A DNA stretch of 64,000 bases, taken from assembly GCA_020632445.1 (NCBI GenBank), contig JACKFN010000002.1, positions 105,360 to 169,359 on the forward strand, written 5' to 3'. The number at the start of each line of letters is the position of its first letter. Position 1 is the stretch's first letter. Made by a program: the position numbers and the translations under genes. Shown here in pieces: positions 16,719 to 33,382 of the stretch. Origin of the DNA: Candidatus Nomurabacteria bacterium (GTDB taxonomy: Bacteria; Patescibacteriota; Patescibacteriia; Magasanikbacterales; UBA922). The notes under the pieces were generated by a model, which worked only from the letters and a program-made list of their open reading frames with translations, was not told the DNA's origin and searched no databases.

Positions 16719-16857
16719 GCAATAAAAAAATCGGCTCGTACTCTACTACAAATATTTCTCATAGTATAGCACAAACCGACAAAAAGAGGGATGCACGGCC
16801 GCGTGTCAGTGGGAAAATTCACGCGGCATGCTATTGGGTGGGATATATTGTGTGAGA

Positions 16858-18177
16858 TCAAGCGTCGCGCGGAAGGTAGATCATACCGGAGTTGGCCAGC
16901 TGTGCGCCATATCCGGCGCCAATCACCAGCTGCCCGATCAGGTCACCAGGCTGGACAAGTCTCATCTCAATGGCACGACTGATCACGATGCCCGTTGACG
17001 GGCACACGGTGTTGCCGATGTCAGGCGTGCGAAGTGTACGATCGAGCATATCCAGCATATCGGCCAGCTCCCGCACCAACTTGAAGTTGGCCTGGTGAAT
17101 CGCGATCAGCATGAACTCCGTGATAGACTCCACACCCCACATCCGCGTGAGCATCTCGGCGTTGTCCATCATCGCACGGAAGAAGACCTCGGCCACGACG
17201 CCGGCGTTCATGGTGTACCGCGCATCCTGCCAGTTGCCGGCGTAGAGCGGGAAATCCGAACCACCTGCCATGAAGTCGACCAGCTCGATCGGCAGCGACG
17301 ACTCGCAGGACGTAAGACGCCCCTGACCACACCGCTCGAAGATAAGCGCCGAACCACCATCCGCGAAGAACCACGGCGTAGCCGCAGCCCACGGATGAGG
17401 ATGTTCGTTGGCCGTTCGCGTGATGTCGGGGTGCATGGCGGAGCCCGATGTGGAGTTGGTCCCCACGACGACACCCAGCTGAAGTCCTTCATGGGCCTTC
17501 ATGAACGTAGCCATCTCGTTAATGGCCGCACCCAATCCAGCACACCCGAAGTTCATGTGACGAACGATCCATCGACTCCGGCTGAGCCCGAGGATGTTCA
17601 TAGCCGCGCCGATGAGCCCACCGAGGTTGGTCCTCCCAGTGGTGCTCACGAAAACCATCACACCATTGCTCGTCCGCGCTTCATCGAGCGAGATGCCGGC
17701 CTGGTGAAAGGCACGAACCACGGCGAGCACAGCGTAGTGAAGGTCCGTCATGTGGTCCACGAGCGGCACGAGCGCCTGACGATGGGTCGGGAACGTCGCG
17801 CGCTCCCTCATGCCATGTCTGCGCTGGAGCTCCAGGATGCGGTCACGGAACTCCACGAGCTCGGGGTTCGGTTCGTCGGGATCACCCATGATCGGGAACC
17901 CCGTCACCAGACACCTCCCCTTCTCGTCGGTGTAGCCCGCCTCGTGGGAATCGAGAAACCGCACATGGCCCTGTCTGTCGATCTTGACCGCCGCGCTCGA
18001 ACCTTCGGCCTCGGTCATGCCGTAGAAGTCTTGGGCGGACATGAGGCCACCGCTGGGCTTGTTCCAAGGGAACCCACGAGCAATGTCCTCGTAGGTCACC
18101 TGCTGTCGACCGACATCAGAGGCGGCACGCAGCACCACCCCCATAACTTCCACTGCGTTGATGGTGTTGCTGGACAT
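16858..18177 (-). CDS. FabH-like (KAS III-type) thiolase-fold condensing enzyme with a ~150 aa N-terminal extension, encoded on a high-GC island
   Basis: The catalytic triad context is conserved: NFGCAGLGAAI (Cys; cf. AAACAGF), IAIHQANFKLV (His; cf. VPHQANLRI) and DIGNTVCPSTG (Asn; cf. HGNTSAAS). The C-terminus LVIGAGYG matches the FabH end. GC3 is strongly elevated relative to the rest of the window. The start was chosen at ATG 18175-18177, which is preceded by the RBS GGCGGAGGGT, rather than the TTG at 18207. Confidence 0.7.
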   Translation of the reverse strand: MSSNTINAVEVMGVVLRAASDVGRQQVTYEDIARGFPWNKPSGGLMSAQDFYGMTEAEGSSAAVKIDRQGHVRFLDSHEAGYTDEKGRCLVTGFPIMGDPDEPNPELVEFRDRILELQRRHGMRERATFPTHRQALVPLVDHMTDLHYAVLAVVRAFHQAGISLDEARTSNGVMVFVSTTGRTNLGGLIGAAMNILGLSRSRWIVRHMNFGCAGLGAAINEMATFMKAHEGLQLGVVVGTNSTSGSAMHPDITRTANEHPHPWAAATPWFFADGGSALIFERCGQGRLTSCESSLPIELVDFMAGGSDFPLYAGNWQDARYTMNAGVVAEVFFRAMMDNAEMLTRMWGVESITEFMLIAIHQANFKLVRELADMLDMLDRTLRTPDIGNTVCPSTGIVISRAIEMRLVQPGDLIGQLVIGAGYGAQLANSGMIYLPRDA

Positions 18178-18396
18178 CTGACCCTCCGCCTTGATCTCGT
18201 GTTTCAAAACTCAGAATCTACAGCACCACCTGGCACTGGGATCCCGATGTATACGATGCATCCTAGCTTTCGTACACATTACTCTTGAGTTACTACTCAC
18301 CAAAGAATAATGTAAACAAAAACAGTCCTCGCCGGACATTCTATTCTATAGAGTAAAAAAAATCGCCGACAGGCCCCCTTTTTCAATTGAAACTCA

Positions 18397-18783
18397 CTAA
18401 TCCAAATCCATAATATTGTCCCGAAATCTCCCGCAGTTTATATCAAGAGCTCTGTAAATGTCAAATAAGCGTTCACTAGATAGTTCCCCCTTTTTAGCAA
18501 TGATTCCTCTTCTATCAAGAGTTTCTATCTTATACAGCTTACACAAAGCGTCAACGCCTAACCCATTTTCCGCGGCCACGAGAAGTACCTCGTTAGCAAA
18601 GACATGGTCACCTTTTTCACGCGGCTCAAGAATAGCGCATACAATAGTAGACAATCCTTCATTGAGGACATTATCCTGCAAAACCACCACAGCTTTTTCT
18701 CCCTTTTTTGACTCGTAGAGAAAAATATCACCACGCTCTATGACACCACAATACATGTTATCAATATCAAATGCTGCTTCCAT
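18397..18783 (-). CDS. MazF/PemK-family endoribonuclease toxin
   Basis: 128 aa. RGDIFLYE...KAVVVLQDN...LSTIVCAI...RRGIIAKKGELSSERLFDIYRALDI follows the PemK/MazF fold pattern (GDIWLV...RPVLIVS...VVVPxT...). It overlaps the upstream RHH gene. Confidence 0.65.
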   Translation of the reverse strand: MEAAFDIDNMYCGVIERGDIFLYESKKGEKAVVVLQDNVLNEGLSTIVCAILEPREKGDHVFANEVLLVAAENGLGVDALCKLYKIETLDRRGIIAKKGELSSERLFDIYRALDINCGRFRDNIMDLD

Positions 18784-18785
18784 AC

Positions 18786-18983
18786 CTATTGCCTTTCTTT
18801 GCTCACCGCCCGCAGTTCATCCTCCATGCTTTGGATTTCCTGTTTATGTTTGTAGTCCAAAATCGCCCTAGCCACAAAATCACTTCGCTTTCCATGCGGA
18901 AATGCTTTACGAAAATAACTTGCCAAGCTTTTTGGCAATTTTATAGTCAAACGTTCAATGGATTCCTCCGCTTTACTTCGCAT
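18786..18983 (-). CDS. Ribbon-helix-helix (CopG/MazE-like) antitoxin
   Basis: ERLTIKLPKSLASYFRKAFP...SDFVARAILDY is a typical RHH beta-strand plus two helices. Its stop lies next to the toxin start. The start was chosen at MRSKAEE. Confidence 0.55.
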   Translation of the reverse strand: MRSKAEESIERLTIKLPKSLASYFRKAFPHGKRSDFVARAILDYKHKQEIQSMEDELRAVSKERQ

Positions 18984-19068
18984 ACTTCTTTCAGTATACA
19001 GAAAAAAAACAAAATCCAAACTTCTTTCTGTGGATAAGTTGCACTCTACAATACACCTTTTATTTGCG

Positions 19069-20769
19069 TTACATCTTTTCTACCACTGATATTCCTAGCA
19101 ATCCAAGCCCCTTTTCCATGACTACCAAAACTTTTTCGATTACTTTGATTCTAAATGCTTGGAGATTTTTGTCGTCTTGGATCACTGGACACTGGTGATA
19201 AAAGACATTAAAAAGCTGCGCCAAGTCAAACACATAATGAGCCACCTTTGACGGATCAAGCTCCTTTGCCGCAAGCGTAGTTACCTGTGGAAACTCAAGC
19301 AACTTAAGTAAAAGCTGCCGTTCTTCATCTACCAGCTCAGCTGGCATCATATATGACCCATTTCGTCCTTCCTGATGTGCCTTTCTCAAAATACTTTTAA
19401 TTCTAGCTACAATATACAATAGGTATGGTCCAGAATCTCCTGATAATGTCACACTGTTTTCGATATCAAAAGCAATATCCGATGAGACGTGCACTTTGAG
19501 CATAGAATACTTGAGCGCAGCTACAGAAATAGCTCGTGCAATTTTTTCTTTTTCTTCAACCTGCGCATCCTCCATTACTCGCTGCACCGCCGATTCTACC
19601 TGCTCAATAAGCTGATCACCAGTAACCACATTTCCGGTTCGAGAACTCATCTTTTGATCACCTTTGAGTTGCAAATAGCCACCAACCAAATGAAATTCCT
19701 TTCCAATCGTCTGTGGAGCAATCAACTCGAGCGCCTTAAAAACTACTTTGAAATATTCCGTTTGTTCTTTCCCCACGACATGAATGACTCTGTCTGGGTT
19801 ATACTGTGCAAAACGCATTTCTGAAAGTGCCAAGTCCTTAGCTTCATAGGTTGGGAAGCCTTTGGAGTTAATAAATACTCGGTCATGCAGGCCATAAGCA
19901 CTGCCCTCAAATATGATGGCGCCTTCACTCTCACGAAATACCCCTTTTTGCATGAATGCCTTTACAATTTCTACTCCCCTCTCATACGTCTGCGACTCAA
20001 AGTACATATGATCAAAACGGGTATCAAGTTTTTCATAAATGGTATCAAAATATTCGAGACTCCACTGACGCGCTTTTTGGTATACCTCTTGAATATCAAG
20101 AGAATGCTCATACACTTTGTCGTTGTACGCGATGACGGCCTGTTTTTTTTCTTCACTTTCTTCGAACGCACGTGCACCGTGCGCATAGCATTGCCCCAAA
20201 AACTCTACGCGCTTTCGAACTGGTTCCTGTTCCATCTGCTCGAACAACTCGATATTCTGATAGATTCCATAGAGTGACATGGCAATATGCCTTCCAACAT
20301 CCCCTTGATAGTTTACACGAAGCACCTCATACCCCGCATTTTCGAGCAAACGTGCAACAGATTCTCCGGTGATGGTGTTACGAAGATGCCCCAAATGAAA
20401 AGCCTTCATAGGATTGGGACATGCAAATTCAACCATGTATTTTTGTCCCTTTCCCACTTCTGAGCTTGCAAAATCATCGCCGATTTCTTGCAAGGCGAGG
20501 TTCGCAATGGCATTACCTTGTAAAAAGAAATTTAGGTATGGACCCGTCGCGGCAACCTCACGGATGAAGTCTGGTTGATGCCGCTGAATTTTCTCCACAA
20601 GATTTTGCGCGCACTCTGCTGGATTTTCTCCTTGCTTTTTGGCATGCACAAAGCAGGCAAATGCAAAATCTCCCATCTGTGCGTTTGGCGGACGAGTTAC
20701 TTCTTTTGGGCCAGTGACTCCTACTTGCTCCAAAATCTGTTCAAGTTGTGTGGCAAAATCTTGTGACAT
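19069..20769 (-). CDS. argS: Arginyl-tRNA synthetase
   Basis: 566 aa. The class I HIGH motif is HLGHLRN. The ArgS-typical DALK anticodon-binding domain ends in a C-terminal Met. Confidence 0.95.
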   Translation of the reverse strand: MSQDFATQLEQILEQVGVTGPKEVTRPPNAQMGDFAFACFVHAKKQGENPAECAQNLVEKIQRHQPDFIREVAATGPYLNFFLQGNAIANLALQEIGDDFASSEVGKGQKYMVEFACPNPMKAFHLGHLRNTITGESVARLLENAGYEVLRVNYQGDVGRHIAMSLYGIYQNIELFEQMEQEPVRKRVEFLGQCYAHGARAFEESEEKKQAVIAYNDKVYEHSLDIQEVYQKARQWSLEYFDTIYEKLDTRFDHMYFESQTYERGVEIVKAFMQKGVFRESEGAIIFEGSAYGLHDRVFINSKGFPTYEAKDLALSEMRFAQYNPDRVIHVVGKEQTEYFKVVFKALELIAPQTIGKEFHLVGGYLQLKGDQKMSSRTGNVVTGDQLIEQVESAVQRVMEDAQVEEKEKIARAISVAALKYSMLKVHVSSDIAFDIENSVTLSGDSGPYLLYIVARIKSILRKAHQEGRNGSYMMPAELVDEERQLLLKLLEFPQVTTLAAKELDPSKVAHYVFDLAQLFNVFYHQCPVIQDDKNLQAFRIKVIEKVLVVMEKGLGLLGISVVEKM

Positions 20770-20778
20770 GTTTTAAAT

Positions 20779-21960: not shown

Positions 21961-21964
21961 ATGC

Positions 21965-23062
21965 TTACATTAAAGGTAAAGTAATGGTAAATACGGTTGA
22001 TGCTGATTGTCGAAAATCGTTATACTCGCCTTCATCTACATCCACCAATACTTCCCTCATTTGGTGGGTCGGACGAGCATTAAACTCATCATCAGTTTCT
22101 GCTCGAGCCTGCTTGGATTCTTTTGATTGAACGGATATCTTTCCACCCATCGATGCGATCAGCTCGTCGGCATGGGCAAGCCCCAGACCAGTGCTTTCAG
22201 AACCACTTACCCCTTCTCGAAAAAGCATTTTCTGCATAGCTTTATCCATGCCAACTCCATCATCACACACCTCGATGACAAACTCACGAAGCTCTGGATG
22301 AACATACATTCCAATACTAATATTTTTGGCACGGACCATTTTTTGTCTTTGCGCATATGTCAAATTCCCCAATATGTTCCGAAAAACATTAAAAAGCACT
22401 CCTTGAGCAACCTTGACCTGCTCATTTTGACCCTGCCGAAAGATGTTTACTTTCTCAAAAGTAATGCGTTTTTTGTATGTCTGCAAGAAAAGTTCAAATA
22501 AGTCTTTGATCTCTTCAATGTTTTTTTCTTCCATGATCTGCTCATCTCCAATGGCTTCTGGGATTTTATATGCGTAATTGTTATTTTCTGTTTGTGCTTT
22601 TTTTTGCTCCACATTATACGAACGCACCACTAATGACTCCATAATAGCTTCGTACAGTTCATATATATCGACCAATCGATTATACAATAGATGAAATCCT
22701 TCATCATCCCTTTCTCCATTATGTGGCTTAAGAGCATCTTCCATGGCTTCGATAAAGCCTACCACCAAGTTATAGTAGTCGTGAAAAAGGTCGTGACCAA
22801 CATATCGCTGTTTGATTTCTTCCGGAAAACTTTCAAACAAAACTGGCGTTTTCTTAAGACTGTCAATCATTCTGGTTGCAAAATCATAGCGTCCTGTACG
22901 TACTGCCTCTGCAGAAGCATGAATCAAAATTTTATACTCACGTAACTTCTTCAAAATGGTATCAAGTGACAATTTCTCTCTTGCCGCTTCCCGTTCTACT
23001 GATTTACCCATATCTTGAGCAGAAACCACAACACGTTGATCTACGACTCTTTTATCACTCAT
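21965..23062 (-). CDS. Cytoplasmic histidine-kinase-like ATPase (HATPase_c) protein with no TM and no clear H-box
   Basis: 365 aa. The N box is LFNVFRNILGNLTYA, G1 is VCDDGVGM and G2 is TGLGLAHADE. It is embedded between valS and tyrS, and its start overlaps the valS stop. Confidence 0.5.
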   Translation of the reverse strand: MSDKRVVDQRVVVSAQDMGKSVEREAAREKLSLDTILKKLREYKILIHASAEAVRTGRYDFATRMIDSLKKTPVLFESFPEEIKQRYVGHDLFHDYYNLVVGFIEAMEDALKPHNGERDDEGFHLLYNRLVDIYELYEAIMESLVVRSYNVEQKKAQTENNNYAYKIPEAIGDEQIMEEKNIEEIKDLFELFLQTYKKRITFEKVNIFRQGQNEQVKVAQGVLFNVFRNILGNLTYAQRQKMVRAKNISIGMYVHPELREFVIEVCDDGVGMDKAMQKMLFREGVSGSESTGLGLAHADELIASMGGKISVQSKESKQARAETDDEFNARPTHQMREVLVDVDEGEYNDFRQSASTVFTITLPLM

Positions 23063-25854
23063 ACAAAACTTTCTTGTTGTTCTTTTAGCTTTTTAAGATT
23101 TTCCTTTGCTTTGGCAAGTTTTTCCTTTTCTTGATTGACCACTGCCTCTGGTGCATTGCTGACAAAACTCTCATTGGAAAGTTTTTTCTCCTGAGCAATA
23201 ACATATGGTTCAATTCCGTCAATTTCTTTTTGGATTCTTTCTTTTTCTTTTTCAAAATCGACAGCACCAGCAAGATCTACATATACAGTTACTCCTGTGT
23301 CCACAAAACTCACCATAGTATCGGTTTTGTCTATCTGTGGTGCAATCGTGAATGACTGTAGTTTCAGAAGTTTTTGGATAACTTGTGCCTGACTATCAAG
23401 CAACACCTGAAATTCTTCTGTTTCAATTGAGACAGAAAGATCAACGGTATATGGTATATTGTACTCTCCTCGGATATTTCGAAGTCCAGTGATAACACTA
23501 CGGACGATTTCAAATTGATTTTCTATTTTTTCGTTGCCTTGAGTACTCATCGCCTTTGGCCATGGGGCGACCATAATAATTTGTTCTTCTCCATAAACAT
23601 TTTGCCAAATGGCTTCCGTAACAAACGGCATAAACGGATGCCACAAACGAAGCAACGTACTCAAAATCACATTGAGAATTTCTGATTTCTCCTCTCCTTC
23701 GGACTCTCGCTTGGCGATTTCCAAATACCAATCGGCCACATCATTCCAAGTAAATTCGCGAAGCTTTTCGAGTGCCAAAGTAAATTGATATTCTGCAACC
23801 AGCGTATTTACCTGTGTTATGGTGTTTTGTAATTTTTGAATAACCCACTGATCAGCGAGTGTGTATGCTTGTGGCATTTGAGAAATTTCTGGTGTGAGTG
23901 CACTTTCACGAATGTTCCCCTTCATGAAACGAGACAGATTCCATAATTTATTCACAAGATTTCTCGCATCTTCTACTTTTTCAATGTAAAAACGAGAATC
24001 ATTCCCAGGTGTGCATCCAGTAACCAAACTATACCGAAGCGCATCAGCACCATACTGCTCAATCATTTCGAGTGGATCAATTCCATTTCCTGCTGACTTG
24101 GAAAATTTCTTTCCATCTTTGTCGCGAAGCATCCCATGAATGTACACATTCGAAAAAGGAATTTCTCCAATCGCATATGTCGTCATCAAAATCATACGTG
24201 CCATCCAGAAAAACAAAATCTCCCACCCCATTTGCATCCAATTGGTTGGGTGAAACAATTTCAAATCTTCGGTTTGATCTGGCCACCCGAGCGTTGAAAA
24301 CGTCCAAAGACCGGAACTAAACCAGGTATCAAGGGTATCTTCGTCCTGAGTCCAGCCATCACCCTGTGGAGCTTCAACTCCGCAGTACACTTCTTCACCA
24401 CGGTACCACACCGGTATCCTATGGCCCCACCAAATCTGCCGTGAAATACACCAATCACGCAAATTATCAATCCATTCAAAATACGTCTTATTATACCTAT
24501 CAGGCAAAATGTTTACCTCTCCAGAACGCACCACCGTCTGCATAAGCTCTTTGAGCGTAACCTCCTGTCCGGCTTTGATATCTTTGAGCTTTGACTGTTT
24601 TAAAACAAATTTTTTATTAACATCCACAAACCACTGATTGGAGACCATTGGTTCTATCACGGTCTTGGTACGATAACACAGTGGCACTCGGTGAACATAG
24701 CTTACGTCTTCTCCAACAATGAGCCCCTTATCTTTCATGATCTGTACAGACTTTTTCCGTGCGCTTTCGATGGTTTCTCCTTCGAGCTCACCGGCGATCG
24801 ATGTCATCTTTCCAGAAAAATCAATCTTTTGGATAAATGTTTCATCTAAACCTCGTCGATTAGCCAAATCATAATCATCTGCTGAATGATTGGAAGAAAT
24901 AGTCATCGCACCTGCCCCCTTTTCCATGTCAATCACCTCGTCGGCAAGAACGGTAAAAGTTCGGGAACCAGCATAGGTCTCGTACTCGAATGTTTGCCCC
25001 TCCAACTCTTTTCCCATTTTTTCTTCGATAACAACAAACTCGCTTTGTGGCTGCAGGGCGCTTAGTACATTTTCCATTTGCTCCTTGTCGTCAAAAAGAT
25101 TTTTGGAAAGGATAAGTTCATCAGTCTCACCATCCGCATTGGTAAAACGCACTTTTACATAGACGCCTTCAGGATGCACCACGAGCGGCGAATTGGCACA
25201 CTTGGTTTCAGGACGAACCGTACCAATCACAAAGTTCCCACAACGGATGTAATAAAACGGTTCTTGTTTTTCATCCCACTCAAGCTCGTCATCCGAAAGC
25301 ACAGACTGCGCTCCAATAGACCAGTTGATCAAACGTGTACCACGGTAGATAAGTCCATCATCGTACATGCGCTTGAAAATTTCGTTCACGGCGCGATTGC
25401 GATCGTCGTCAAAAGTATAGCGAAGTCGTGACCAGTCAGCACTGGTACCGAGTTTTCGAATTTGTCCGAGAATGGTTGCTTTAGAATCTTCGGCAAAGGT
25501 ACGAATCCTACTGAGCAGTTCTTCTCTTCCAAGCTCCTCACGAGGATGCTCAATTCCTTCTTTTACCAAAAGGCCTTCTACCTTGGCCTGAGTGGCTACT
25601 GCTGCGTGATCAGTTCCGGGTAACAGTAACACTTTTTTCCCCTGCATACGCTGATAGCGCACCATGAGATCCATAAGGGAATTTTCCAATGCATGACCCA
25701 AATGCAAAATTCCCGTTACATTTGGTGGCGGCATCATCACAGAAAATGGTTCACCTTCCAGATTATCAGGGTTAAAAAAACCAGAATCTATCCATTTTTG
25801 ATAAATTTCATCTTCAAATTTACTCGGCTCATACGCCTTTTCCATTTCTTTCAT
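23059..25854 (-). CDS. valS: Valyl-tRNA synthetase
   Basis: 931 aa. MPPPNVTGILHLGHA is the ValS signature. The KMSKS motif is KFSKSAGN. A C-terminal coiled coil is present. Confidence 0.95.
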   Translation of the reverse strand: MKEMEKAYEPSKFEDEIYQKWIDSGFFNPDNLEGEPFSVMMPPPNVTGILHLGHALENSLMDLMVRYQRMQGKKVLLLPGTDHAAVATQAKVEGLLVKEGIEHPREELGREELLSRIRTFAEDSKATILGQIRKLGTSADWSRLRYTFDDDRNRAVNEIFKRMYDDGLIYRGTRLINWSIGAQSVLSDDELEWDEKQEPFYYIRCGNFVIGTVRPETKCANSPLVVHPEGVYVKVRFTNADGETDELILSKNLFDDKEQMENVLSALQPQSEFVVIEEKMGKELEGQTFEYETYAGSRTFTVLADEVIDMEKGAGAMTISSNHSADDYDLANRRGLDETFIQKIDFSGKMTSIAGELEGETIESARKKSVQIMKDKGLIVGEDVSYVHRVPLCYRTKTVIEPMVSNQWFVDVNKKFVLKQSKLKDIKAGQEVTLKELMQTVVRSGEVNILPDRYNKTYFEWIDNLRDWCISRQIWWGHRIPVWYRGEEVYCGVEAPQGDGWTQDEDTLDTWFSSGLWTFSTLGWPDQTEDLKLFHPTNWMQMGWEILFFWMARMILMTTYAIGEIPFSNVYIHGMLRDKDGKKFSKSAGNGIDPLEMIEQYGADALRYSLVTGCTPGNDSRFYIEKVEDARNLVNKLWNLSRFMKGNIRESALTPEISQMPQAYTLADQWVIQKLQNTITQVNTLVAEYQFTLALEKLREFTWNDVADWYLEIAKRESEGEEKSEILNVILSTLLRLWHPFMPFVTEAIWQNVYGEEQIIMVAPWPKAMSTQGNEKIENQFEIVRSVITGLRNIRGEYNIPYTVDLSVSIETEEFQVLLDSQAQVIQKLLKLQSFTIAPQIDKTDTMVSFVDTGVTVYVDLAGAVDFEKEKERIQKEIDGIEPYVIAQEKKLSNESFVSNAPEAVVNQEKEKLAKAKENLKKLKEQQESFV

Positions 25855-25991
25855 AAAATTTGCCTAAAATAAAAGAAAAAACAGCATTTATGCAATCAAT
25901 AGATTTATGGTAGCAAATCCAGGCAAAAAAAGCAAATATTGTGCCAAGATAAGCCAAATATTTATCCCCAAGCCACAAATTGACCCAAGAC

Positions 25992-26020
25992 TTGACGTAT
26001 ATGAATTTTTTTGGTATAGT
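25992..26020 (+). promoter_or_regulatory. AT-rich sigma70-like promoter TTGACG-17-TATAGT, immediately upstream of high-GC island 2
   Basis: TTGACG is at 25992-25997 and TATAGT at 26015-26020. The RBS GGAGGA (26041-26046) and GTG (26052) follow. Confidence 0.5.
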
Positions 26021-26051
26021 CATTTATCCGTAACCACCACGGAGGACATCC

Positions 26052-26219
26052 GTGTCCCGTACCAGAAGGACCATCGGTCGAGCCCTGTTTTGGGGCTTGG
26101 CCGCCAACACCGCATGGGTGTTCCTCATGTCGGTAGGGTCCTACGAGCTCCTCGATGGGATCTTCGACATCGACGAGCTGTTCAACTACCGATTCAAGCC
26201 GAAGGAGGAAGACAAGTGA
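26052..26219 (+). CDS. Small membrane protein (55 aa), first ORF of the GC-island micro-operon
   Basis: GTG start with the RBS GGAGGA. The product is VSRTRRTIGRALFWGLAANTAWVFLMSVGSYELLDGIFDIDELFNYRFKPKEEDK. GC3 is high. Its stop overlaps the next start (GTGA). Confidence 0.4.
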   Translation: MSRTRRTIGRALFWGLAANTAWVFLMSVGSYELLDGIFDIDELFNYRFKPKEEDK

Positions 26220-26386
26220 ACGGGATAGCCGAGGACCTGCTCGAGTCGTCTGTGGGCTTATGCCCCTTCTTCATCGTCGACGGCATCAACTGGCTCGAAC
26301 GCCGCGCTCGCGCGCGGACTCGTCGTCGCGAAAACCGTGAAATCCGTCGCTGTAAGCAGATGCAGCATATCTGGGGGCTCTGGTGA
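26216..26386 (+). CDS. Small protein (56 aa) with a hydrophobic N-terminal half and an Arg-rich tail
   Basis: GTG start preceded by AAGGAGGA. The product is VNGIAEDLLESSVGLCPFFIVDGINWLERRARARTRRRENREIRRCKQMQHIWGLW. It is coupled to both ORF1 and ORF3. Confidence 0.4.
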   Translation: MNGIAEDLLESSVGLCPFFIVDGINWLERRARARTRRRENREIRRCKQMQHIWGLW

Positions 26387-26607
26387 TGCTGTTCTACCGC
26401 GCTGGCATCGTCGTCGGTCTCATGCTCAACACCGAGGCCGCAGCGGCCAAGGTGCTGAACCGGCGATCCATTGACGTCGCAGTCGCCTGCCACATCGTCA
26501 GCATCGCCGTCATGGGAGCATTCCTCCCTGAGACCTTCAAGAAGGGCATGCATGACGCCGAGTCAGCGGTGGAAGCTCTAACCAACCCATTCGACTTCGA
26601 CATCTGA
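26383..26607 (+). CDS. Small hydrophobic protein (74 aa), third coupled ORF
   Basis: ATGA stop/start overlap with ORF2. The product is MMLFYRAGIVVGLMLNTEAAAAKVL...VAVACHIVSIAVMGAFLPETFKKG. Confidence 0.4.
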   Translation: MMLFYRAGIVVGLMLNTEAAAAKVLNRRSIDVAVACHIVSIAVMGAFLPETFKKGMHDAESAVEALTNPFDFDI

Positions 26608-26691
26608 TCGTCCCACAAACCACCCCACGCGGACCCCACCCCGCCATCTTCAGAAGAGCAAATACTTGTTTGTTGTTCTGAGTAGAAAAAT

Positions 26692-27855
26692 ATGGCACTA
26701 AAGATTAATGAACAAATCATGAAACGATTTGATCAGGCAAATAACATCCTGATTGTTTTTCGTCGCCATTTTTCTGGAGACTCAATTGCATCAGCGCTTG
26801 GGCTCTATAACTACCTCGAATCAAAAAACAAACGAGTCGACATGGTGTCGGAAAATTTTGTCCTTCCTACACAATACGAATTTTTGCCAAAAGCACATCT
26901 GATCAAAAAAGAATTTTCCTTTCTGCAAAAATTTGTCATTACCGTAGACATCAAGGATATTGGAATTGAAGAACTCAACTATGATGTGGAGCATGAAAAG
27001 CTACGCATTTTTGTTACTCCAAAACAGGGACTCATTACCGGAAACCACATCCGTACCGCGCAGACTCGATTTCGCTATGATCTCATTGTCGTGGTGGACA
27101 GCCCTGACCTCGAATCACTTGGAGATCTCTTTGAAAAACACACAGATTTGTTTTACCAAATTCCCGTTATCAATATTGATAACCACAGCGAAAACGAACA
27201 CTTTGGTCACATCAACCATGTTGATATTACCGCAACCTCTACCGCTGAAATGGTCTACAACCTCATCAAAACCGATCAAAAGCTCGTTATGGATGCTGAC
27301 AAGGCGACTACCCTGCTTACAGGAATCATTGCCAAAACACAGAGCTTCAAGACCAATGAGACCAAACCACACACACTTAATATTGCCAGTGAACTCATCA
27401 ACCACGGAGCAGATCGAGACCTTATTATTCGCAACCTCTACCGCACTCGTAGCGTTAATGCGCTCAAACTCTGGGGACAGGCGCTCACACACCTCAAGCA
27501 CGACCGATCAAACAATCTTGTCTGGACGAGTATTACCCGAGAAGATTTCGTTCGCACTGGTGCCAATGAATATGACCTGCATGATATTGTCGATGAACTT
27601 ATCTCGAACTCTCCAGAAGCAGAAGTGATTGCCCTCTTTTATGAACCACACCACAAGGATTCAGAAGGAACACCCGTGCATGTTCTCCTTACCGTCGAAA
27701 AACCATACGACGCTGCCAAGCTCGTCGGTGAATATGGCCCCCTCCTTGGAGGAAAAAGACGCGTGTCCTTTATCGTAGAAGGAAAATCACTTGCAGATGT
27801 TGAAAGCAGTATTGTGGAGACGATCAAAAAACGAATGAAAGAAGTGAAAAAGTAA
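26692..27855 (+). CDS. DHH-family phosphoesterase (NrnA-like core) with variant motif III (DNH instead of DHH)
   Basis: 387 aa. Motif I is HFSGDSIASALG, motif II is VVVDSPD and motif III is NIDNHSEN. Its size is NrnA-like. Confidence 0.5.
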   Translation: MALKINEQIMKRFDQANNILIVFRRHFSGDSIASALGLYNYLESKNKRVDMVSENFVLPTQYEFLPKAHLIKKEFSFLQKFVITVDIKDIGIEELNYDVEHEKLRIFVTPKQGLITGNHIRTAQTRFRYDLIVVVDSPDLESLGDLFEKHTDLFYQIPVINIDNHSENEHFGHINHVDITATSTAEMVYNLIKTDQKLVMDADKATTLLTGIIAKTQSFKTNETKPHTLNIASELINHGADRDLIIRNLYRTRSVNALKLWGQALTHLKHDRSNNLVWTSITREDFVRTGANEYDLHDIVDELISNSPEAEVIALFYEPHHKDSEGTPVHVLLTVEKPYDAAKLVGEYGPLLGGKRRVSFIVEGKSLADVESSIVETIKKRMKEVKK

Positions 27856-27881
27856 CAGTAAAGCTAAAAAAAAAATCGGCA

Positions 27882-28448: not shown

Positions 28449-28449
28449 A

Positions 28450-29184: not shown

Positions 29185-29200
29185 TTTTGTAATTCAATAG

Positions 29201-30775
29201 TTACATCAAGGCCCTCCCGGTCATTTCTGGAGGAATTGGTATTTCCAACATAGAAAGTACCGTTGGCGCGACATCTGCGAGCATACCAACAGGAGGCATT
29301 AGACTCAAGTCACCTCCTGGCGCATCACCAGAAGGGCCAGCTTGCCCCACATAATTCTTTCCAATGACATAGAATGGCACAGGATTATTTGAATGTTCTT
29401 TGTCCCTATCCCCCGTTTGGAGATTCACCATTGACTCAGCATTTCCGTGGTCCGCGGTTATCAAAAGGACTCCATCCTTTGCCAAAGTATACTCAGCAAT
29501 TTGACCAAGACAGCCATCGAGTGTCTCAATAGCTCTTATGGTCGCCTGAAGATCTCCAGTATGCCCCACCATATCGGCATTTGCAAAATTCACAATGATG
29601 ACGTCATGCTGCCCACCTTGAATAAGTTTGATAACCTCCTTGGTAATCTCCGGAGCTGACATTTCTGGTGCTTGATCATAAGAGGAAACCTTTGGTGAGG
29701 GAACAAGTACTCGGTCTTCATTTTCAAATTCATCCTCTACGGTACCATTGAGAAAAAACGTAACGTGGGCATATTTTTCTGTTTCTGCCACATGCGCCTG
29801 GCGAAGACCTGCTTTGGAAATAACTTCAGCAAGACAGTTTTGAACAACAACTGGTGGATAGGCAACCGACACCGGAAGTTCTTTTTCATATTCTGTCATG
29901 GAAGCAAAATACAAATTCTGGATCTTTTTGGTTTCAAACTTGCTGAACCCAGGCAAAACAATGGCCTTAGTGATTTCACGCGCGCGATCTGGTCTGAAGT
30001 TAAAAAAAATCACGGCATCATTATCATCAATGGTAGCCAATGGCTGTCCTTGAGTACCAATCACCACAGGTTCAAATTCCTCATCATATATTTCTTTGAC
30101 ATACGAAGCATCCAGTGCAGCCAATGGATCAGAAAAGTATGATGACGCCCTTCCAAAAACCATTGCATCATATGCCTTTTGAACCCGCTCCCAACGGTTA
30201 TCACGGTCCATAGCAAAATGACGACCAGACAAAGTAGCGATTTTCCCTAAACCAATTTCAGAAAGCTTGTTTTGCAGTCTCCCAATAAAATCTTTTCCAC
30301 TATTGTAGACAGCATCACGACCATCCGTAAACGCATGTACAAAAACATCCTTCACTCCATTTGCCTTTGCCATGTCCAAAAGTGCATCGCAGTGATCCTG
30401 GGCTCCATGAACATTTCCCGCACTCATAATGCCCATAATATGAAGTTTTGAACCGTTGGTTTTGGCATGTTCCATTGCCCCAAGAAGTGCCTTGTTCTGC
30501 GCAAACTCACCACTTGAAATTTCGTTATTAATACGTGGCAGTGTTTGGTAGTATACACGTCCGGCACCAATATTGAGATGTCCTACCTCAGAATTTCCCA
30601 TCTCTCCAAACCGAAGCCCCACTTCGTTTCCAGAAGACAAAAGCGTCATAGCTGGATAATGTGCTACGAAGTTATCAAAATTGGGAGTCTTGGCAACATA
30701 GATGGCATTTCCATCACCGGGGGGTGCGACTCCAAATCCATCGAGAATAGCGAGTACTAAGGGTTTTGGCCTCAT
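29201..30775 (-). CDS. gpmI: 2,3-bisphosphoglycerate-independent phosphoglycerate mutase
   Basis: 524 aa. The N-terminus reads LVLAILDGFGV. The catalytic-Ser motif is MGNSEVGHLNIGAGR and the metal-binding region reads TADHGNAE. Confidence 0.9.
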   Translation of the reverse strand: MRPKPLVLAILDGFGVAPPGDGNAIYVAKTPNFDNFVAHYPAMTLLSSGNEVGLRFGEMGNSEVGHLNIGAGRVYYQTLPRINNEISSGEFAQNKALLGAMEHAKTNGSKLHIMGIMSAGNVHGAQDHCDALLDMAKANGVKDVFVHAFTDGRDAVYNSGKDFIGRLQNKLSEIGLGKIATLSGRHFAMDRDNRWERVQKAYDAMVFGRASSYFSDPLAALDASYVKEIYDEEFEPVVIGTQGQPLATIDDNDAVIFFNFRPDRAREITKAIVLPGFSKFETKKIQNLYFASMTEYEKELPVSVAYPPVVVQNCLAEVISKAGLRQAHVAETEKYAHVTFFLNGTVEDEFENEDRVLVPSPKVSSYDQAPEMSAPEITKEVIKLIQGGQHDVIIVNFANADMVGHTGDLQATIRAIETLDGCLGQIAEYTLAKDGVLLITADHGNAESMVNLQTGDRDKEHSNNPVPFYVIGKNYVGQAGPSGDAPGGDLSLMPPVGMLADVAPTVLSMLEIPIPPEMTGRALM

Positions 30776-30778
30776 AGA

Positions 30779-32404
30779 TTAATACAGTTCTTGACCAGTC
30801 ATATCATCAGGCTTTGGGAGCCCCATGAGTTTGAGCACTGTAGGAGCGACATCCGCGAGCTTTCCATTTTTCTTCAGTCTGATCGCTCGAGCATTTTTTT
30901 TGATAATGATAAATGGAACAGGATTAGTGGTATGTTCAGTCATCTGTTCTCCGGTAACTTCGTTAATCATCCGCTCGGCGTTTCCATGATCAGCCGTAAT
31001 AACCACCTGACCATCTATCGAAAGCATATACTCAACGAGTTTCCCTATCGCAGCATCCATGTGGTGCACGGCAACTTTTGCAGCCTCTAAATTTCCAGTG
31101 TGCCCAACCATGTCTGCATTGGGAAAATTTACACAGATAAAATCAAAAGTATCTTGAACAAAATATTCTTGAATTTTTTTTCCAACCTGATGACTCATCA
31201 TTTGCGGATGATCTGCATACGTATAGTGTCCGGTAGATCGGACGAGCTGTCTTTTTTCACCATTGATAGCACTGGGAAATCCACCATTAAGAAAGTACGT
31301 AACATGCGCGTATTTCTCGGTTTCTGAAAGAAAAAGCTGTCGGTAATCTTCACCAATGGCCTTTGCTAGACAATTTTTGAAATCAGGACTCGGAAAAGCA
31401 GTAAATACTCCAGGAAGGTCCGGTCCAAAATCCGTCATGGCGACAAATCGAGTATTCTTCGGAAATTTTTTTCTGTGAAACGCACCTTTGTTCCGTTTAT
31501 GGAAATCAGTTTGTACAAATGCCTTCGTGAGTTGTCGGGCACGATCAGAACGTGCATTAAAAAAGAAAATCACGTCATTGTTTTTGAGTTTCACTATGGG
31601 TTTTCCTTTCTCCGTGATAATAGTAGGTGAAATATATTCATCTGTTTCTCCTCGATTGTACGCTTGTGAAATTGCCTCTTCTACACTTGTGGCTTCATAC
31701 GGTGCCTCTCCCAGTACAATAGTATCATAAGCTTTTTTCGTCCTATCCCATAGCTTGTTTCTGTCCATAGCATAAAACCTTCCCATAACACTGGCAATCT
31801 TTTCCTTCTGCATACTCTTGTGAAGCGCATGCAAATGTTTCACTGCAGAATGTGGGGGCGAATCCCGTCCATCGGTAAAGAGGTGGAGATATACATTATG
31901 AAACTTTTCTCGACGAAAATACTCCAAAAGGGCATACAAATGTTCAGGGTGTGCATGTGCACTGTTATGATTTGTCAAAAGACCCATCAAATGAATGTTG
32001 GTATTGTATTTCTTTGCATGAAATAGCCCTTGCTTGAAAGCTTCATTTTTAAAAAATGTCCCATCAGTAATGGAACCCCAAATACGTACGAGGTCCTGCT
32101 CTACCACTCTTCCTGCCCCGATGTTAAAATGACCCGCTTCGGAATTCCCTTGTTGCCCAGAAAACAGTCCTACATATGTTCCATGAGCTTTGAGCTTCGT
32201 ACTGGGGTAATTTTTCATGTACGAAAAAAGGTTGGGAGCCGTTTTTGGTGTGATGGCATTCCCTTTTTGTTTTGAAGAGAGACCAAAGCCATCCATGATA
32301 ATAAAAAGTGTTTTCTTTTTTGAATTTTTTTGAATTTTTTCTGCTGGCATATGCTCTATTGTACTCTTTTTGTCGTTGGAATTCAAATCTCCCTGCCACA
32401 CCAC
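30779..32404 (-). CDS. Second, divergent iPGM-family paralog (cofactor-independent phosphoglycerate mutase-like)
   Basis: 541 aa. It carries FIIMDGFGLS, QGNSEAGHFNIGAGR and TADHGNAER. The true start is possibly downstream, at MPAEK. Confidence 0.75.
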   Translation of the reverse strand: MVWQGDLNSNDKKSTIEHMPAEKIQKNSKKKTLFIIMDGFGLSSKQKGNAITPKTAPNLFSYMKNYPSTKLKAHGTYVGLFSGQQGNSEAGHFNIGAGRVVEQDLVRIWGSITDGTFFKNEAFKQGLFHAKKYNTNIHLMGLLTNHNSAHAHPEHLYALLEYFRREKFHNVYLHLFTDGRDSPPHSAVKHLHALHKSMQKEKIASVMGRFYAMDRNKLWDRTKKAYDTIVLGEAPYEATSVEEAISQAYNRGETDEYISPTIITEKGKPIVKLKNNDVIFFFNARSDRARQLTKAFVQTDFHKRNKGAFHRKKFPKNTRFVAMTDFGPDLPGVFTAFPSPDFKNCLAKAIGEDYRQLFLSETEKYAHVTYFLNGGFPSAINGEKRQLVRSTGHYTYADHPQMMSHQVGKKIQEYFVQDTFDFICVNFPNADMVGHTGNLEAAKVAVHHMDAAIGKLVEYMLSIDGQVVITADHGNAERMINEVTGEQMTEHTTNPVPFIIIKKNARAIRLKKNGKLADVAPTVLKLMGLPKPDDMTGQELY

Positions 32405-32468
32405 TATATTGACAAATTAGCTTTTTCATGTTAAGGTCGATGCAGTACAATCATGGGGAGGTACCCCG

Positions 32469-33317
32469 ATGTTCTACGTAATCACAGCGGTAGTCGTCGC
32501 CGCCGTATTTGTCGCTATCAGCATCGTTCGTAATCTCCGTCAGGGACGGTCCTTCGAGGAGATGGCCGATGATGGTCAGCAGCCCAAGGACGAAGGCGAC
32601 AAGAGCAAGCAGAACGATCGCTTCGCTCTACCCGATGACAAGGCGGCCACCTCGAGGGCTAACCTGAAGACCGTGCTGGACTACCCCCCGGACAAGGTGC
32701 CCATGGTGACCATCGTGTACGTGGACGACGATGGACACCAGAAGCGCCGGCGCTGGCCGGTGATTCAAGGTCTCCGGATGGTAAGGACCTTTTTGCGCCA
32801 AGGAGTTCGAACTCAACGTTTCGCCATCCGTGATGTCTCGGAGTTCGACCCCACGAACACCTCACAGCAGGGTGACGCTGACGCGCTGTTCTGGCGCATC
32901 AACGATGGTACGAGCGAGCCCGACCTCGACCCCCCGATCCCCTGCGAGCTGCTGATGATCCTGATGGGGGTGGATCAGAAAGAAGCAGATCGGCTCTTCG
33001 ATGCCATGCAAAAAGGTAACGCGCGAGACACGATCGCTGACCCACGAGGCGCCGCAGAGGTCGCACGCACCCATGCGCTCGCTGAGCAGGGGATTCGCGT
33101 TAATCTGCGTCGCACCATCGCACTTGGTGATCCAGCGATCGCCTCCCTTCAGAACTTCATGGCGATCAACCAAGCTCCTGAGCGAGCTCTGGCAGAGGTA
33201 GTGCAGGCACGTCGAACAAATCTGGGGATGCCATCCCCTCAGTTGTCCGACCCTGAACCTGCCGACAGTCAACGACCGACGCTCTTCGCCAACCCTACCG
33301 ATCCCACCAAAAGCTAG
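32469..33317 (+). CDS. Hypothetical membrane-anchored protein encoded on high-GC island 3
   Basis: 282 aa. The RBS GGGGAGG lies 7 nt before the ATG. The N-terminal TM is FYVITAVVVAAVFVAISIV, followed by an acidic/Pro-rich soluble domain. GC3 is high. A terminator follows. Confidence 0.5.
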   Translation: MFYVITAVVVAAVFVAISIVRNLRQGRSFEEMADDGQQPKDEGDKSKQNDRFALPDDKAATSRANLKTVLDYPPDKVPMVTIVYVDDDGHQKRRRWPVIQGLRMVRTFLRQGVRTQRFAIRDVSEFDPTNTSQQGDADALFWRINDGTSEPDLDPPIPCELLMILMGVDQKEADRLFDAMQKGNARDTIADPRGAAEVARTHALAEQGIRVNLRRTIALGDPAIASLQNFMAINQAPERALAEVVQARRTNLGMPSPQLSDPEPADSQRPTLFANPTDPTKS

Positions 33318-33343
33318 CCGAAGCCTCACCCTCGGCAAACTCC

Positions 33344-33382
33344 AAAAAGCCCGCTCTTTTGATAGAGCGGGCTTTTTGTTTT
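33344..33382. terminator. Bidirectional rho-independent terminator after the island-3 gene (+) and eno (-)
   Basis: AAAAAGCCCGCTC-ttttgata-GAGCGGGCTTTTTGTTTT. Confidence 0.6.

Follow-up and report, generated by a model that had tools for sequence, protein, structure and literature searches.

Three short GC-rich islands in the chromosome of a Candidatus Nomurabacteria bacterium (CPR, ultra-small) have been present in this lineage since before its split from a related species, as comparison of the two genomes shows, and their GC-richness is equal in both. We give an even chance to the reading that the islands are of ancient foreign origin and were then inherited vertically at a GC-rich steady state, under a local bias favouring G and C.

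Composition, borders and coding nature of the islands

The window, i.e. the whole 64 kb stretch of DNA that was analysed, has a GC content of 0.428 (300-nt windows: mean 0.428, sd 0.048), and GC above 0.52 in 300-nt windows is confined to three segments:

about 16750-18300, island 1, peak GC 0.65 (300-nt windows)
26000-26700, island 2, peak GC 0.61 (300-nt windows)
32400-33400, island 3, peak GC 0.62 (300-nt windows)

At each island edge GC rises from about 0.35 to about 0.60 within at most 100 nt. Island 1 is flanked by a histidine kinase gene and a PemK toxin gene with its antitoxin, island 2 by valS and DHH, and island 3 by a gpmI paralogue and eno, the neighbours that the first-pass annotation had named. 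Its description of three sharply bounded high-GC islands was borne out by sliding-window GC (300 nt), GC3 and tetranucleotide signature, while its estimate of ~38% GC for the backbone had to be corrected to about 42%. The tetranucleotide signature of the islands correlated with that of 64-69% GC, actinomycete-like contigs at r 0.46-0.74, compared with r 0.26-0.53 for their own backbone.

The GC3 of the island ORFs (0.68-0.80) lies 8-12 sd above that of the other ORFs of the window (57 non-island ORFs of at least 80 aa; mean 0.389, sd 0.035, maximum 0.51). The island ORFs show codon periodicity in the order GC3>GC1>GC2, indicating that their frames fit real coding, and they combine high GC at all codon positions with an amino-acid usage of R>K. 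Between the window and the related species, nucleotide identity at codon positions 1/2/3 is 0.53/0.60/0.41 in island 1 and 0.49/0.52/0.32 in island 3. All islands hold intact ORFs with protein-level constraint; the plausible coding sequence noticed earlier in each of them is upheld by codon periodicity, protein homology and, for island 1, a FabH-type triad and fold.

Long chance ORFs do arise in GC-rich DNA, island 1 has antisense ORFs, and GC-rich islands in AT-rich genomes can be structured RNAs. We give scarcely any credence, however, to an artefact through chimerism in assembly or binning, or to ORFs that are merely incidental to structured RNA genes of high GC. Chimerism, which had been offered as the alternative to acquisition, is refuted by junctions that are 100% identical in the independent Logan assemblies of SRR12358675, SRR12358676 and SRR14234112 and in the 188 kb NCBI contig, and by the same island architecture in two other species, assembled by others. 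A structured non-coding RNA gene was rejected as well: Rfam gave zero gathering-level matches in the islands, whether those of the window or those of L174 and L087, and codon periodicity is strong, with protein homology (E 5e-72 and 2e-16) and a catalytic triad.

Genes and regulatory elements

Island 1 carries a single gene, now placed on the minus strand, with a terminator-like element downstream:

16790..18290, unstranded, GC-rich block (0.54-0.67, GC profile) between the histidine kinase and PemK toxin genes
16793..16831, minus strand, GC-rich hairpin followed by a T-run, terminator-like, situated 3' of the ORF (fold -21 kcal/mol, z -2.4)
16858..18177, minus strand, island 1 ORF of 439 aa (H6758_01680; GC3 0.76), divergent FabH/KAS III-like condensing enzyme

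H6758_01680 is annotated as hypothetical at NCBI. Its product carries a Cys212-His361-Asn389 triad in GCAG, HQAN and GNT contexts; C212 is invariant, as are H361 and N389 in a 3-sequence alignment; in a 20-sequence alignment these two are at least 90% conserved, and the triad is retained in the ortholog of the related species. Pfam ACP_syn_III_C (PF08541) scored the protein at 26.3 bits, its cut-off being 26.6; PF08545 (ACP_syn_III) gave no match, and NCBIfam fabH TIGR00747 scored 24.5 bits, far under its cut-off of 292.1. A Foldseek search of the PDB with the low-confidence model of the protein (pLDDT 53, pTM 0.63) returned FabH, OleA and BioZ as best matches (E about 4e-13, probability 1.00, TM 0.67-0.75 on the target), and the model thus predicts a thiolase-like KAS III fold. 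The product is likely an enzyme of acyl condensation or acyl transfer that uses the Cys-His-Asn triad. It is 35% identical to its ortholog (E 5e-72), and the two copies are reciprocal best matches (222 bits vs at most 108 to the outside family).

Island 2 contains three overlapping small ORFs, not one:

25992..26020, plus strand, sigma70-type promoter TTGACG-17-TATAGT with extended TG (promoter scan, 10/12 matches)
26021..26051, plus strand, conserved leader CATTTATCCGT..AACCACCACGGAGG with Shine-Dalgarno site GGAGGA at 26041-26046
26052..26219, plus strand, ORF A, 55 aa, GTG start, basic N-terminus and one transmembrane helix
26216..26386, plus strand, ORF B, 56 aa, GTG start overlapping the ORF A stop (GTGA)
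26383..26607, plus strand, ORF C, 74 aa, start overlapping the ORF B stop (GTGATG)
26608..26681, plus strand, conserved GC-rich 3' tail with ACCCCACCCCGC motif, GC 0.67 (alignment with the relative)
26650-26681, plus strand, hairpin without U-tract just upstream of the DHH start codon at 26692

In the alignment the promoter hexamers are identical in the related species, and the leader sequences stay alike as far as the Shine-Dalgarno site (mean column identity 83%) and diverge beyond it. ORF A (GC3 0.80) has a counterpart that is 30% identical and has the same features. ORF B combines an acidic N-terminus, a hydrophobic stretch and a strongly basic tail; its counterpart is 35% identical and is translationally coupled too (TGATG). 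ORF C has two predicted transmembrane helices and is 42% identical to its counterpart. The hairpin folds with z -2.7 in the window and -4.4 in the relative. The products are likely a complex of three small membrane proteins, and the operon is probably co-transcribed with DHH.

Island 3 carries one ORF:

32409..32437, plus strand, promoter-like pair TTGACA-17-TAAGGT upstream of the island, both hexamers conserved in the relative
32455..32461, plus strand, Shine-Dalgarno site GGGGAGG, 7 nt upstream of the ATG, its GGGAGG core conserved in the relative
32469..33317, plus strand, island 3 ORF of 282 aa (H6758_01745; GC3 0.68), annotated as hypothetical at NCBI
33343..33378, bidirectional terminator with a perfect 15-bp stem (-36.6 kcal/mol, z -4.7)

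The scan gave other, weaker promoter pairs near the one listed. The terminator is common to the island 3 ORF and the convergent eno, and the relative has an equivalent element. The protein has an N-terminal transmembrane anchor, a moderately conserved alpha/beta core at about residues 55-180 and a variable C-terminus; it is likely membrane-anchored and probably faces the cytoplasm. A search of about 15 billion proteins gave a single homolog, P0038, which the related species encodes in a syntenic position (31-32% identity, E 2e-16). The AlphaFold model reached pLDDT 53 overall and 64-82 for residues 55-145, and a PDB fold search with it gave no match. The earlier observation of AT-rich, sigma70-like promoters and strong Shine-Dalgarno sites ahead of islands 2 and 3 is confirmed. 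The islands look like expressed transcription units, and it is from such signals in the DNA that we infer their expression.

Age, source and persistence of high GC

Backbone proteins of the window and of the related species (four runs, one genome) are 63-87% identical, with synonymous sites saturated, and synteny runs from PemK through argS-tyrS-valS, DHH and gpmI-gpmI to eno-PGK. GC-rich blocks lie at all three sites of the related species with the same borders, and the island proteins are 30-42% identical. DNA alignments break at the borders 26045/26625, 32371/33413 and 18304, the last being the border of island 1 at which alignment picks up again, and promoter, leader and tails are 73-83% conserved. 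The DNA that bounds each island is thus regulatory, conserved and similar to the backbone: promoter and Shine-Dalgarno site for islands 2 and 3, and a 3' tail or terminator. Given that sites, borders and regulatory edges are the same despite saturated backbone synonymous sites, we concluded that the islands predate the species split. All three islands are found in two species only; in a third (species C), informative for one site, the region upstream of valS is taken up by another GC-rich operon of membrane proteins. In the more distant relatives L011, L089 and L008 (valS only about 41% identical) the island 2 site is empty, the valS-DHH spacer being 98-172 nt vs 837 nt in the window.

One explanation offered by the first-pass annotation was recurrent acquisition of short cassettes from a high-GC donor, e.g. 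an actinobacterial host; the islands would then be recent, independent gains that are not yet ameliorated. Sharp borders and donor-like composition suit such gains, as does the occurrence of the island 1 protein family on actinomycete-like contigs, and the unrelated GC-rich genes at the valS site of the third species would suit an insertion hotspot. Recent or recurrent acquisition is nonetheless improbable, since the same three islands, with homologous genes, borders, promoters, Shine-Dalgarno sites and tails, are shared across saturated synonymous divergence, six independent same-site insertions without recombinase, repeat or tRNA target are implausible, and the donor was not found. The class of recently transferred DNA was likewise rejected, the islands being present in a related species and having no close homolog in the protein collections or IMG/VR.

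Outside the lineage, relatives could be detected for one island protein only, the FabH-like enzyme of island 1; they are about 30% identical to it and lie on contigs of 64-69% GC with actinomycete-type neighbours (WS_DGAT, neocarzinostatin, dodecin, ECF-sigma). This family, which occurs only on such contigs, is the evidence for a high-GC donor of island 1, and to this extent the proposed actinobacterial source is supported. No donor for islands 2 and 3 was found among about 15 billion proteins, and no close homolog of any island in the protein collections, including Logan assemblies of the same runs, or in IMG/VR; with no homolog outside the lineage, a foreign origin of islands 2 and 3 is read from composition only. 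Searches for mobility genes among the island ORFs gave no Pfam or PHROG match, none adjoins the islands (neighbours: HK, PemK, valS, DHH, gpmI, eno), the tRNAs of the window, at 13454 and 48347, lie away from them, and searches for flanking direct or inverted repeats gave only chance-length matches. A classical mobile island or prophage remnant was rejected; the islands have the atypical composition of such elements and lack their mobility genes, tRNA site and repeats. Integron cassettes were rejected too: there is no integrase among the neighbours and there are no attC-like imperfect inverted repeats at cassette ends, the sole likeness being expression from an upstream promoter.

The composition itself does not behave as a decaying relic. 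GC3 is 0.71-0.74 in the islands of three species vs 0.33-0.39 in their backbones, and the offset in GC3 and R/K ratio is alike in all three. With the per-lineage relaxation factor of 0.28 (95% CI 0.12-0.38) obtained from backbone four-fold sites, the island GC3 required at the split is 1.02-1.97; passive amelioration of an ancestral transfer was rejected, since values above 1.0 would be needed. At island four-fold sites (only 184, from alignments at 30-42% identity) 67% differ between species while composition is the same (A.10, C.42, G.27, T.21). Island synonymous sites are thus largely randomised between species with GC-rich composition kept; the residual GC/AT-class correlation at four-fold sites, 0.25 in islands vs 0.08 in the backbone, means that complete turnover is not demonstrable. 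An equally fast-evolving neighbour gene (26% identity) has a normal GC3 of 0.38, indicating that fast evolution alone does not yield high GC. Our searches of papers found no mechanism that holds a few kb at +35 GC3 points in a bacterial chromosome, and we know of none.

Under the reading of an ancient foreign origin, an ancestor would have gained the genes by horizontal transfer from a high-GC organism, and the genes would have settled in intergenic spacers without mobility machinery, island 2 between the probable resident DHH promoter and the DHH start codon. Vertical inheritance would have followed, with island composition a maintained steady state and not a donor fossil. The local bias would favour G/C in the short tails outside the coding sequence as well as at every codon position; candidates are selection on island transcripts or proteins, and GC-biased repair or conversion confined to the island loci. 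We tentatively propose, at somewhat below even odds, that a few short chromosomal loci can have their own nucleotide equilibrium: at three fixed sites a local process favouring G/C would have kept genes, whether imported or lineage-specific, at GC3 about 0.75 vs 0.35-0.39 in the backbone, outlasting synonymous saturation, and the divergence of the island proteins would be two to three times as fast as that of their neighbours.

Long residence in a high-GC genome is the simplest reading of island composition, and this favours the main rival, ongoing replacement, in which homologous DNA of an unsampled high-GC source repeatedly takes the place of the ancestral sequence inside the ORFs. The reservoir might be the epibiont's bacterial host, or a mobile element of high GC acquired through transformation. 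The island of every species would then track its own reservoir, giving donor-like composition, extreme divergence and fixed borders. Composition, amino-acid usage and tetranucleotides do resemble a high-GC genome at all codon positions, the ORFs alone diverge while the edges are conserved, and the amelioration arithmetic, with a donor GC3 of 0.85-0.95, permits an island age below about 15-68% of the time elapsed after the split. We consider replacement unlikely, given that the searched collections hold no reservoir: the single homolog of the island 3 protein is the syntenic CPR copy, island 1 has relatives only at the distance given above, even in the Logan assemblies of the same runs, and IMG/VR gave none. 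Both FabH-like copies, moreover, have in common an N-terminal extension absent from every outside homolog, and the GC-rich non-coding tails are conserved like backbone DNA, indicating that the tails were not replaced. The bolder variant, in which the islands are continually re-templated from the homologous genes of a high-GC host, is disfavoured.

An endogenous origin would make the islands native, lineage-specific genes whose GC-richness was created, and not only maintained, by a local process, e.g. recombination hotspots under diversifying selection with gene conversion biased towards GC. No homolog of islands 2 and 3 was found outside the lineage, high GC accompanies fast protein evolution at three loci, and the third species has an unlike GC-rich membrane-protein operon at the valS-upstream site, all of which would fit. 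On the other hand, the only outside relatives of the FabH-like enzyme are in high-GC genomes, the islands are very sharply bounded, more distant relatives have an empty site, and the islands show no sequence variation across three runs, the available assemblies of each genome being identical. To our knowledge, GC effects of recombination reported in bacteria are far smaller than +0.35 GC3. Conservation of bacterial recombination hotspots between related species (PMC11879095) counts for an endogenous origin and a NAR 2024 study, which argues against biased conversion as the cause, counts against it; we regard this origin as rather doubtful.

Atypical GC is routinely taken as a sign of recent horizontal transfer and its decay as a clock, which is wrong for these islands: they look freshly imported though they are older than a split with saturated synonymous divergence. 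Should a local GC-favouring process be at work, HGT detection and models of base-composition evolution would be affected, as would MAG decontamination, where composition filters can flag such islands, and the three loci would offer a compact system for weighing selection on GC vs biased conversion. Renewal of the islands from a partner organism, should that be what occurs, could give a lead to the hosts of Nomurabacteria, and re-templating from a host would make the islands a record of its identity. The lineage of the window genome is thought to lack lipid synthesis; the FabH-like enzyme and the small membrane proteins are candidates for roles in the envelope or at the interface with the host.

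Comparison with known systems

The island 1 protein resembles FabH/KAS III, OleA and BioZ in its GCAG Cys, HQAN His and GNT Asn, in the ACP_syn_III_C similarity at its C-terminus and in its fold match (TM 0.70-0.75 on the target). It differs in being only 12-19% identical to solved structures, in an extra N-terminal region of about 100-140 residues missing in outside homologs, and in its genomic setting, since CPR bacteria are generally regarded as having no fatty-acid synthesis.

In Borrelia, antigenic variation loci of the vlsE type exceed their AT-rich genome in GC content, and the islands are likewise locally GC-rich, rapidly diverging genes in an AT-richer genome. The vls system, however, needs silent cassette arrays and encodes a surface lipoprotein, whereas the topology of the island 3 protein suggests a cytoplasmic domain, and blastn and tblastx searches of the 64 kb window for silent paralogous cassettes of the islands gave self matches only.

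Eukaryotic GC-biased gene conversion hotspots include mouse Fxy, which straddles the pseudoautosomal boundary, and fast-evolving GC-enriched exons. The islands share with them a sharply bounded GC rise at all codon positions and accelerated amino-acid change; the eukaryotic cases, however, depend on meiotic recombination hotspots, and we know of no documented GC-biased conversion of comparable magnitude in bacteria.

Transferred DNA is said to ameliorate towards host composition in the model of Lawrence and Ochman. The expectation is restated in PMC12455944. The islands resemble its subject in being genes of foreign composition within a genome of different mutational equilibrium, but the model predicts backbone GC by synonymous saturation and the islands are unconverged in three species.

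Integration hotspots ('islets') for transferred genes between core genes are reportedly the subject of work by Oliveira, Touchon and Rocha. Hotspots are also discussed in PMC11879095. The islands fit this description in their syntenic core flanks and in a content that is different or absent in other lineages: they are genes of atypical composition between housekeeping genes, with no integrase, transposase, tRNA or repeats, and the valS-upstream site has different genes in the third species and is empty in more distant relatives. Usual hotspot content, however, turns over between strains and drifts to host composition, whereas the homologous genes of the islands persist across species at their own GC, without drift to that of the host.

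Composition, borders and genes of the three GC-rich islands

The GC profile of the window (42.8% GC; mean 0.428, sd 0.048 over 300-nt windows) exceeds 0.52 only at ~16750-18300, 26000-26700 and 32400-33400, with peaks of 0.61-0.65, and reveals no further GC-rich island in the other 47 kb. The three segments reported in the first-pass annotation were thus confirmed, as were their flanking genes: a histidine kinase gene and pemK (island 1), valS and the DHH phosphoesterase gene, DHH (island 2), and a gpmI paralogue and eno (island 3). The backbone, put there at ~38% GC, is actually at ~42%. At every island edge GC changes between ~0.35 and ~0.60 within 100 nt or less. The islands carry the following ORFs:

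16858-18177, minus strand: island 1 ORF, 439 aa
26052-26219, plus strand: island 2, first small ORF
26216-26386, plus strand: island 2, second small ORF
26383-26607, plus strand: island 2, third small ORF
32469-33317: island 3 ORF, 282 aa

The three small ORFs of island 2 are coupled by stop/start overlaps (GTGA, GTGATG). GC at third codon positions (GC3) is 0.68-0.80 in the island ORFs compared with 0.36-0.44 in nine neighbouring genes, i.e. 8-12 sd above the 57 other ORFs of the window, and the island ORFs show a GC3>GC1>GC2 periodicity. Arginine and lysine usage is inverted (islands R 8.3%, K 2.4%; backbone R 4.6%, K 7.9%), and the short non-coding tails of the islands have a GC of 0.64-0.67. 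The highest GC3 among backbone ORFs, 0.51 at 39645-40091 (minus strand), is ~3.5 sd over the mean and far under the islands. We found neither significant flanking repeats of the kind that border mobile elements nor adjoining tRNA genes at the islands, and no silent cassettes or paralogues of them within the window.

All junctions are present at 100% identity in independent Logan assemblies of three runs (SRR12358675, SRR12358676 and SRR14234112), and NCBI holds the same proteins (H6758_01680, H6758_01745) on a 188 kb Candidatus Nomurabacteria bacterium contig, indicating that the organism belongs to CPR/Patescibacteria. Given these identical junctions and the 188 kb contig, the assembly or binning chimerism considered earlier no longer stands, and an artefact is effectively excluded. 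The valS of the window is at most 54% identical to that of any GTDB species representative. Population variants were absent: the available assemblies are 100% identical, and a second cluster member differs only by an alternative start codon. A literature search returned no mention of the run accessions.

Island 1 encodes a FabH/KAS III-like enzyme that is very divergent. Its score for Pfam ACP_syn_III_C falls just short of the cut-off (26.3 versus 26.6 bits) and its NCBIfam fabH matches are weak; the GCAG, HQAN and GNT motifs are kept across family alignments, and a structure model of low confidence (pLDDT 53, pTM 0.63) matches FabH, OleA and BioZ structures (E ~4e-13). No close relatives were found. 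A profile search recovered ~33 clusters of environmental FabH-like proteins, 384 aa long and roughly 30% identical to it; the contigs of the three clusters inspected have a GC of 0.64-0.69 and carry WS_DGAT, neocarzinostatin-family, dodecin and ECF-sigma neighbours, a setting that is actinomycete-like. The island 2 products are small membrane proteins and the product of island 3 carries a membrane anchor at its N-terminus; Pfam and NCBIfam searches gave nothing meaningful for either island. For the island 3 protein there was likewise no PHROG or PDB-fold relative, the fold search yielding no match at E <0.29. An orphan in a word-indexed search, it found a single homologue, P0038 (31% identity, E 2e-16), upon exhaustive search of 1.84 billion representatives.

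Other readings of the islands were rejected. Rfam gathering scans of the window and its relatives matched nothing in the islands, which speaks against structured RNAs, and a phage or defence origin was dismissed given that there were no PHROG matches and that IMG/VR held no relatives of the island 1 or island 3 protein. As to transcripts resistant to MazF/PemK, ACA and UAC are merely mildly lower in the islands and no specific motif is missing; the trinucleotides depleted beyond codon usage are generic A/T-rich ones only (z -3.5 to -4).

Elsewhere in the window, a tRNA-Ile gene (48347-48420, minus strand) has the genomic anticodon TAT; in bacteria AUA is usually read by a lysidine-modified CAT tRNA, and TAT is uncommon. 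The class A RNase P RNA (12996-13428, plus strand) is 433 nt long against a model of 367 positions, indicating insertions relative to the consensus.

The islands in related species

The gene for P0038 occupies the equivalent syntenic place, gpmI-gpmI-[X]-eno, in a related genome known from independent assemblies of four runs (SRR29965070-73), the contigs of which are all identical. Its gene order is that of the window over ~20 kb, with backbone identities of 63-87% for proteins and 67-77% for DNA. The relative is GC-rich at all three sites (0.56-0.68 beside PemK, 0.55-0.63 between valS and DHH and 0.54-0.59 between gpmI and eno; backbone ~0.41), and the island borders (window 26045/26625, 32371/33413 and 18304) are exactly where interspecies DNA alignments break off and pick up again. 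Its island 1 holds an intact 435-aa FabH-like ORF with 35% full-length identity to ours (E 2e-70 by tblastn, 5e-72 by blastp). The two copies have an unusual N-terminal extension and the catalytic motifs in common and are reciprocal best matches, scoring 222 bits with each other versus at most 108 against the outside family. Its island 2 holds the same three coupled small ORFs (30, 35 and 42% identity). In interspecies comparisons of the island ORFs, codon positions 1 and 2 are better conserved at the nucleotide level than position 3, and the catalytic triad is kept, indicating protein-level constraint. A further candidate for a third genome, P0040 at locus L172, was set aside, its context being unrelated.

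The regulatory edges of the islands are conserved at the level of backbone DNA. For island 2 these are a promoter (TTGACG-17-TATAGT), a leader (CATTTATCCGT..AACCACCACGGAGG) and a C-rich 3' tail with a hairpin; for island 3, a promoter (TTGACA-17-TAAGGT), a GGGAGG Shine-Dalgarno core, a 3' tail and a terminator common to eno. The suggestion that islands 2 and 3 are wired to host promoters was therefore borne out as far as these promoter and Shine-Dalgarno edges are real and conserved, and from sequence the islands are predicted to be expressed. The hairpin separates the last ORF of island 2 from the start codon of DHH (window 26650-26681; ~2236-2268 of L169, a locus of the relative; z -2.7 and -4.4). 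It lacks a U-tract, consistent with read-through into DHH, and might serve as an attenuator or as an element of RNA stability or processing.

Both tandem gpmI paralogues (cofactor-independent phosphoglycerate mutase; window 29201-30775 and 30779-32350, minus strand; ~40% mutually identical) are conserved at 82-85% in the related species. A GTG start listed mechanically for the second copy, 32404, is probably too far upstream: both the relative and the gene call from Logan point to 32350. In valS (23059-25854, minus strand), DNA at 24637-25576 has no match in the relative while both flanks align at 67-70%, and the protein has 931 aa here and 895 aa there; this essential synthetase thus appears, from the aligned sequences, to have a variable internal segment.

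In distant relatives (valS ~41% identical), DHH and valS are divergent neighbours 98-172 nt apart compared with 837 nt here, indicating that island 2 was gained within this lineage; the island 2 promoter could not be aligned with the DHH promoters of these island-less relatives, the spacers being too diverged. In a third species (valS identity 54%), represented by a MAG and by a JGI contig that agree at 99.95% identity, a divergently oriented 0.62-0.63 GC block lies directly upstream of valS and encodes two coupled membrane proteins (GC3 0.69-0.78) without detectable similarity to those of island 2 (best E 0.12). The MAG contig (L007, CAZMTW010000022.1), the closest available relative of the valS region and the counterpart of JGI contig L087 (Ga0210044_10029019), is titled 'uncultured Gammaproteobacteria bacterium' in GTDB, a label that is probably wrong. 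All three islands are thus known from two species, and one site from one more. GC-rich segments also occur in L010 and L011, two more distant genomes of different lineages, where they adjoin tRNAs or coincide with the beginning of a gene for a large secreted protein; in L010 (labelled Bdellovibrionales, GC 0.49), a 0.64 GC segment with ambiguous ORFs (15151-15850) abuts a three-tRNA cluster.

Amelioration and the persistence of island composition

The two species differ at 63% of backbone four-fold degenerate sites, a divergence near saturation (F81 distance 1.46). A direct two-state estimate gave a per-lineage GC relaxation factor of 0.28 (95% CI 0.12-0.38). Even at the upper-bound relaxation, today's island GC3 of 0.60-0.80 would need an impossible 1.02-1.55 at the split, and passive amelioration of an ancestral transfer is rejected. 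For islands decaying passively from a donor with GC3 of 0.85-0.95, the calculated age is less than 15-68% of the time elapsed since the split, at odds with the sites, borders, regulatory edges and homologous genes that the two species share. Independent recent insertions are effectively excluded. The recurrent acquisition from a high-GC donor offered as one explanation in the first-pass annotation is partly supported: a foreign-looking origin is plausible, but given these shared features the acquisitions are not recent.

Island four-fold sites differ between the species at 67% of positions (n=184, from alignments at 30-42% identity) and have the same composition in both (A.10, C.42, G.27, T.21; GC4 ~0.69), with a residual GC/AT-class correlation of 0.25, higher than the 0.08 of the backbone. 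Island GC3 is 0.74, 0.71 and 0.74 in the three species, the backbones having 0.39, 0.33 and 0.39, and arginine exceeds lysine in the islands of all three. Given these similar values, the composition of the islands behaves like a steady state. Fast evolution by itself does not explain this, because a sensor histidine kinase gene (HATPase_c; 21965-23062, minus strand) in the tyrS-valS interval, only 26% identical to its syntenic counterpart, has an ordinary GC3 of 0.38.

Origin of the islands and comparison with known systems

The islands are three intact blocks the size of transcription units, and the promoters and tails that bound them are conserved. At least two species have inherited these blocks, which combine hyper-divergence with a stable GC-richness. 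They would derive from a high-GC foreign organism, for which the evidence is reasonable in the case of island 1, composition being the one line that points to it for islands 2 and 3, and would have entered intergenic spacers without mobility genes, island 2 separating the DHH start codon from the probable resident promoter of that gene. A local G/C bias, whether from selection on island transcripts or proteins or from repair or conversion that is GC-biased at these loci only, may then have kept the blocks and their short non-coding tails from relaxing to the backbone equilibrium. We put the odds that the anomaly reflects such a locus-specific, GC-favouring evolutionary regime at somewhat below even.

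Continual overwriting of the island ORFs by homologous DNA from an unsampled high-GC reservoir would account directly for the composition, yet we regard it as unlikely: no reservoir homologues were found, though the collections searched include assemblies of the same runs, the two FabH-like copies from CPR have an extension unique to them, and conservation extends to the GC-rich tails. A purely endogenous origin, with enrichment driven by a hotspot, seems to us quite improbable; it agrees with islands 2 and 3 being orphans, but not with the distribution of the FabH-like family, nor with the small GC effects reported for bacterial recombination. A NAR 2024 study likewise argues against biased conversion as the cause (PMC11879095).

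What stands out is the age and stability of the compositional anomaly, which current amelioration models do not predict; if true, a locus-specific GC-favouring regime would be new for bacteria. In the literature searched we came across no account of GC-rich orthologous islands that persist in CPR or other bacteria. The known kind to which the islands come nearest is that of HGT-derived islets at core-gene hotspots. The three loci did not test as classical mobile islands, integron cassettes, structured RNAs or cassette-type antigenic variation loci. They resemble integration hotspots between core genes in placement but differ in showing neither turnover nor amelioration, and the closest conceptual analogue of a sharply bounded, GC-rich, fast-evolving segment would be the eukaryotic gBGC hotspot.
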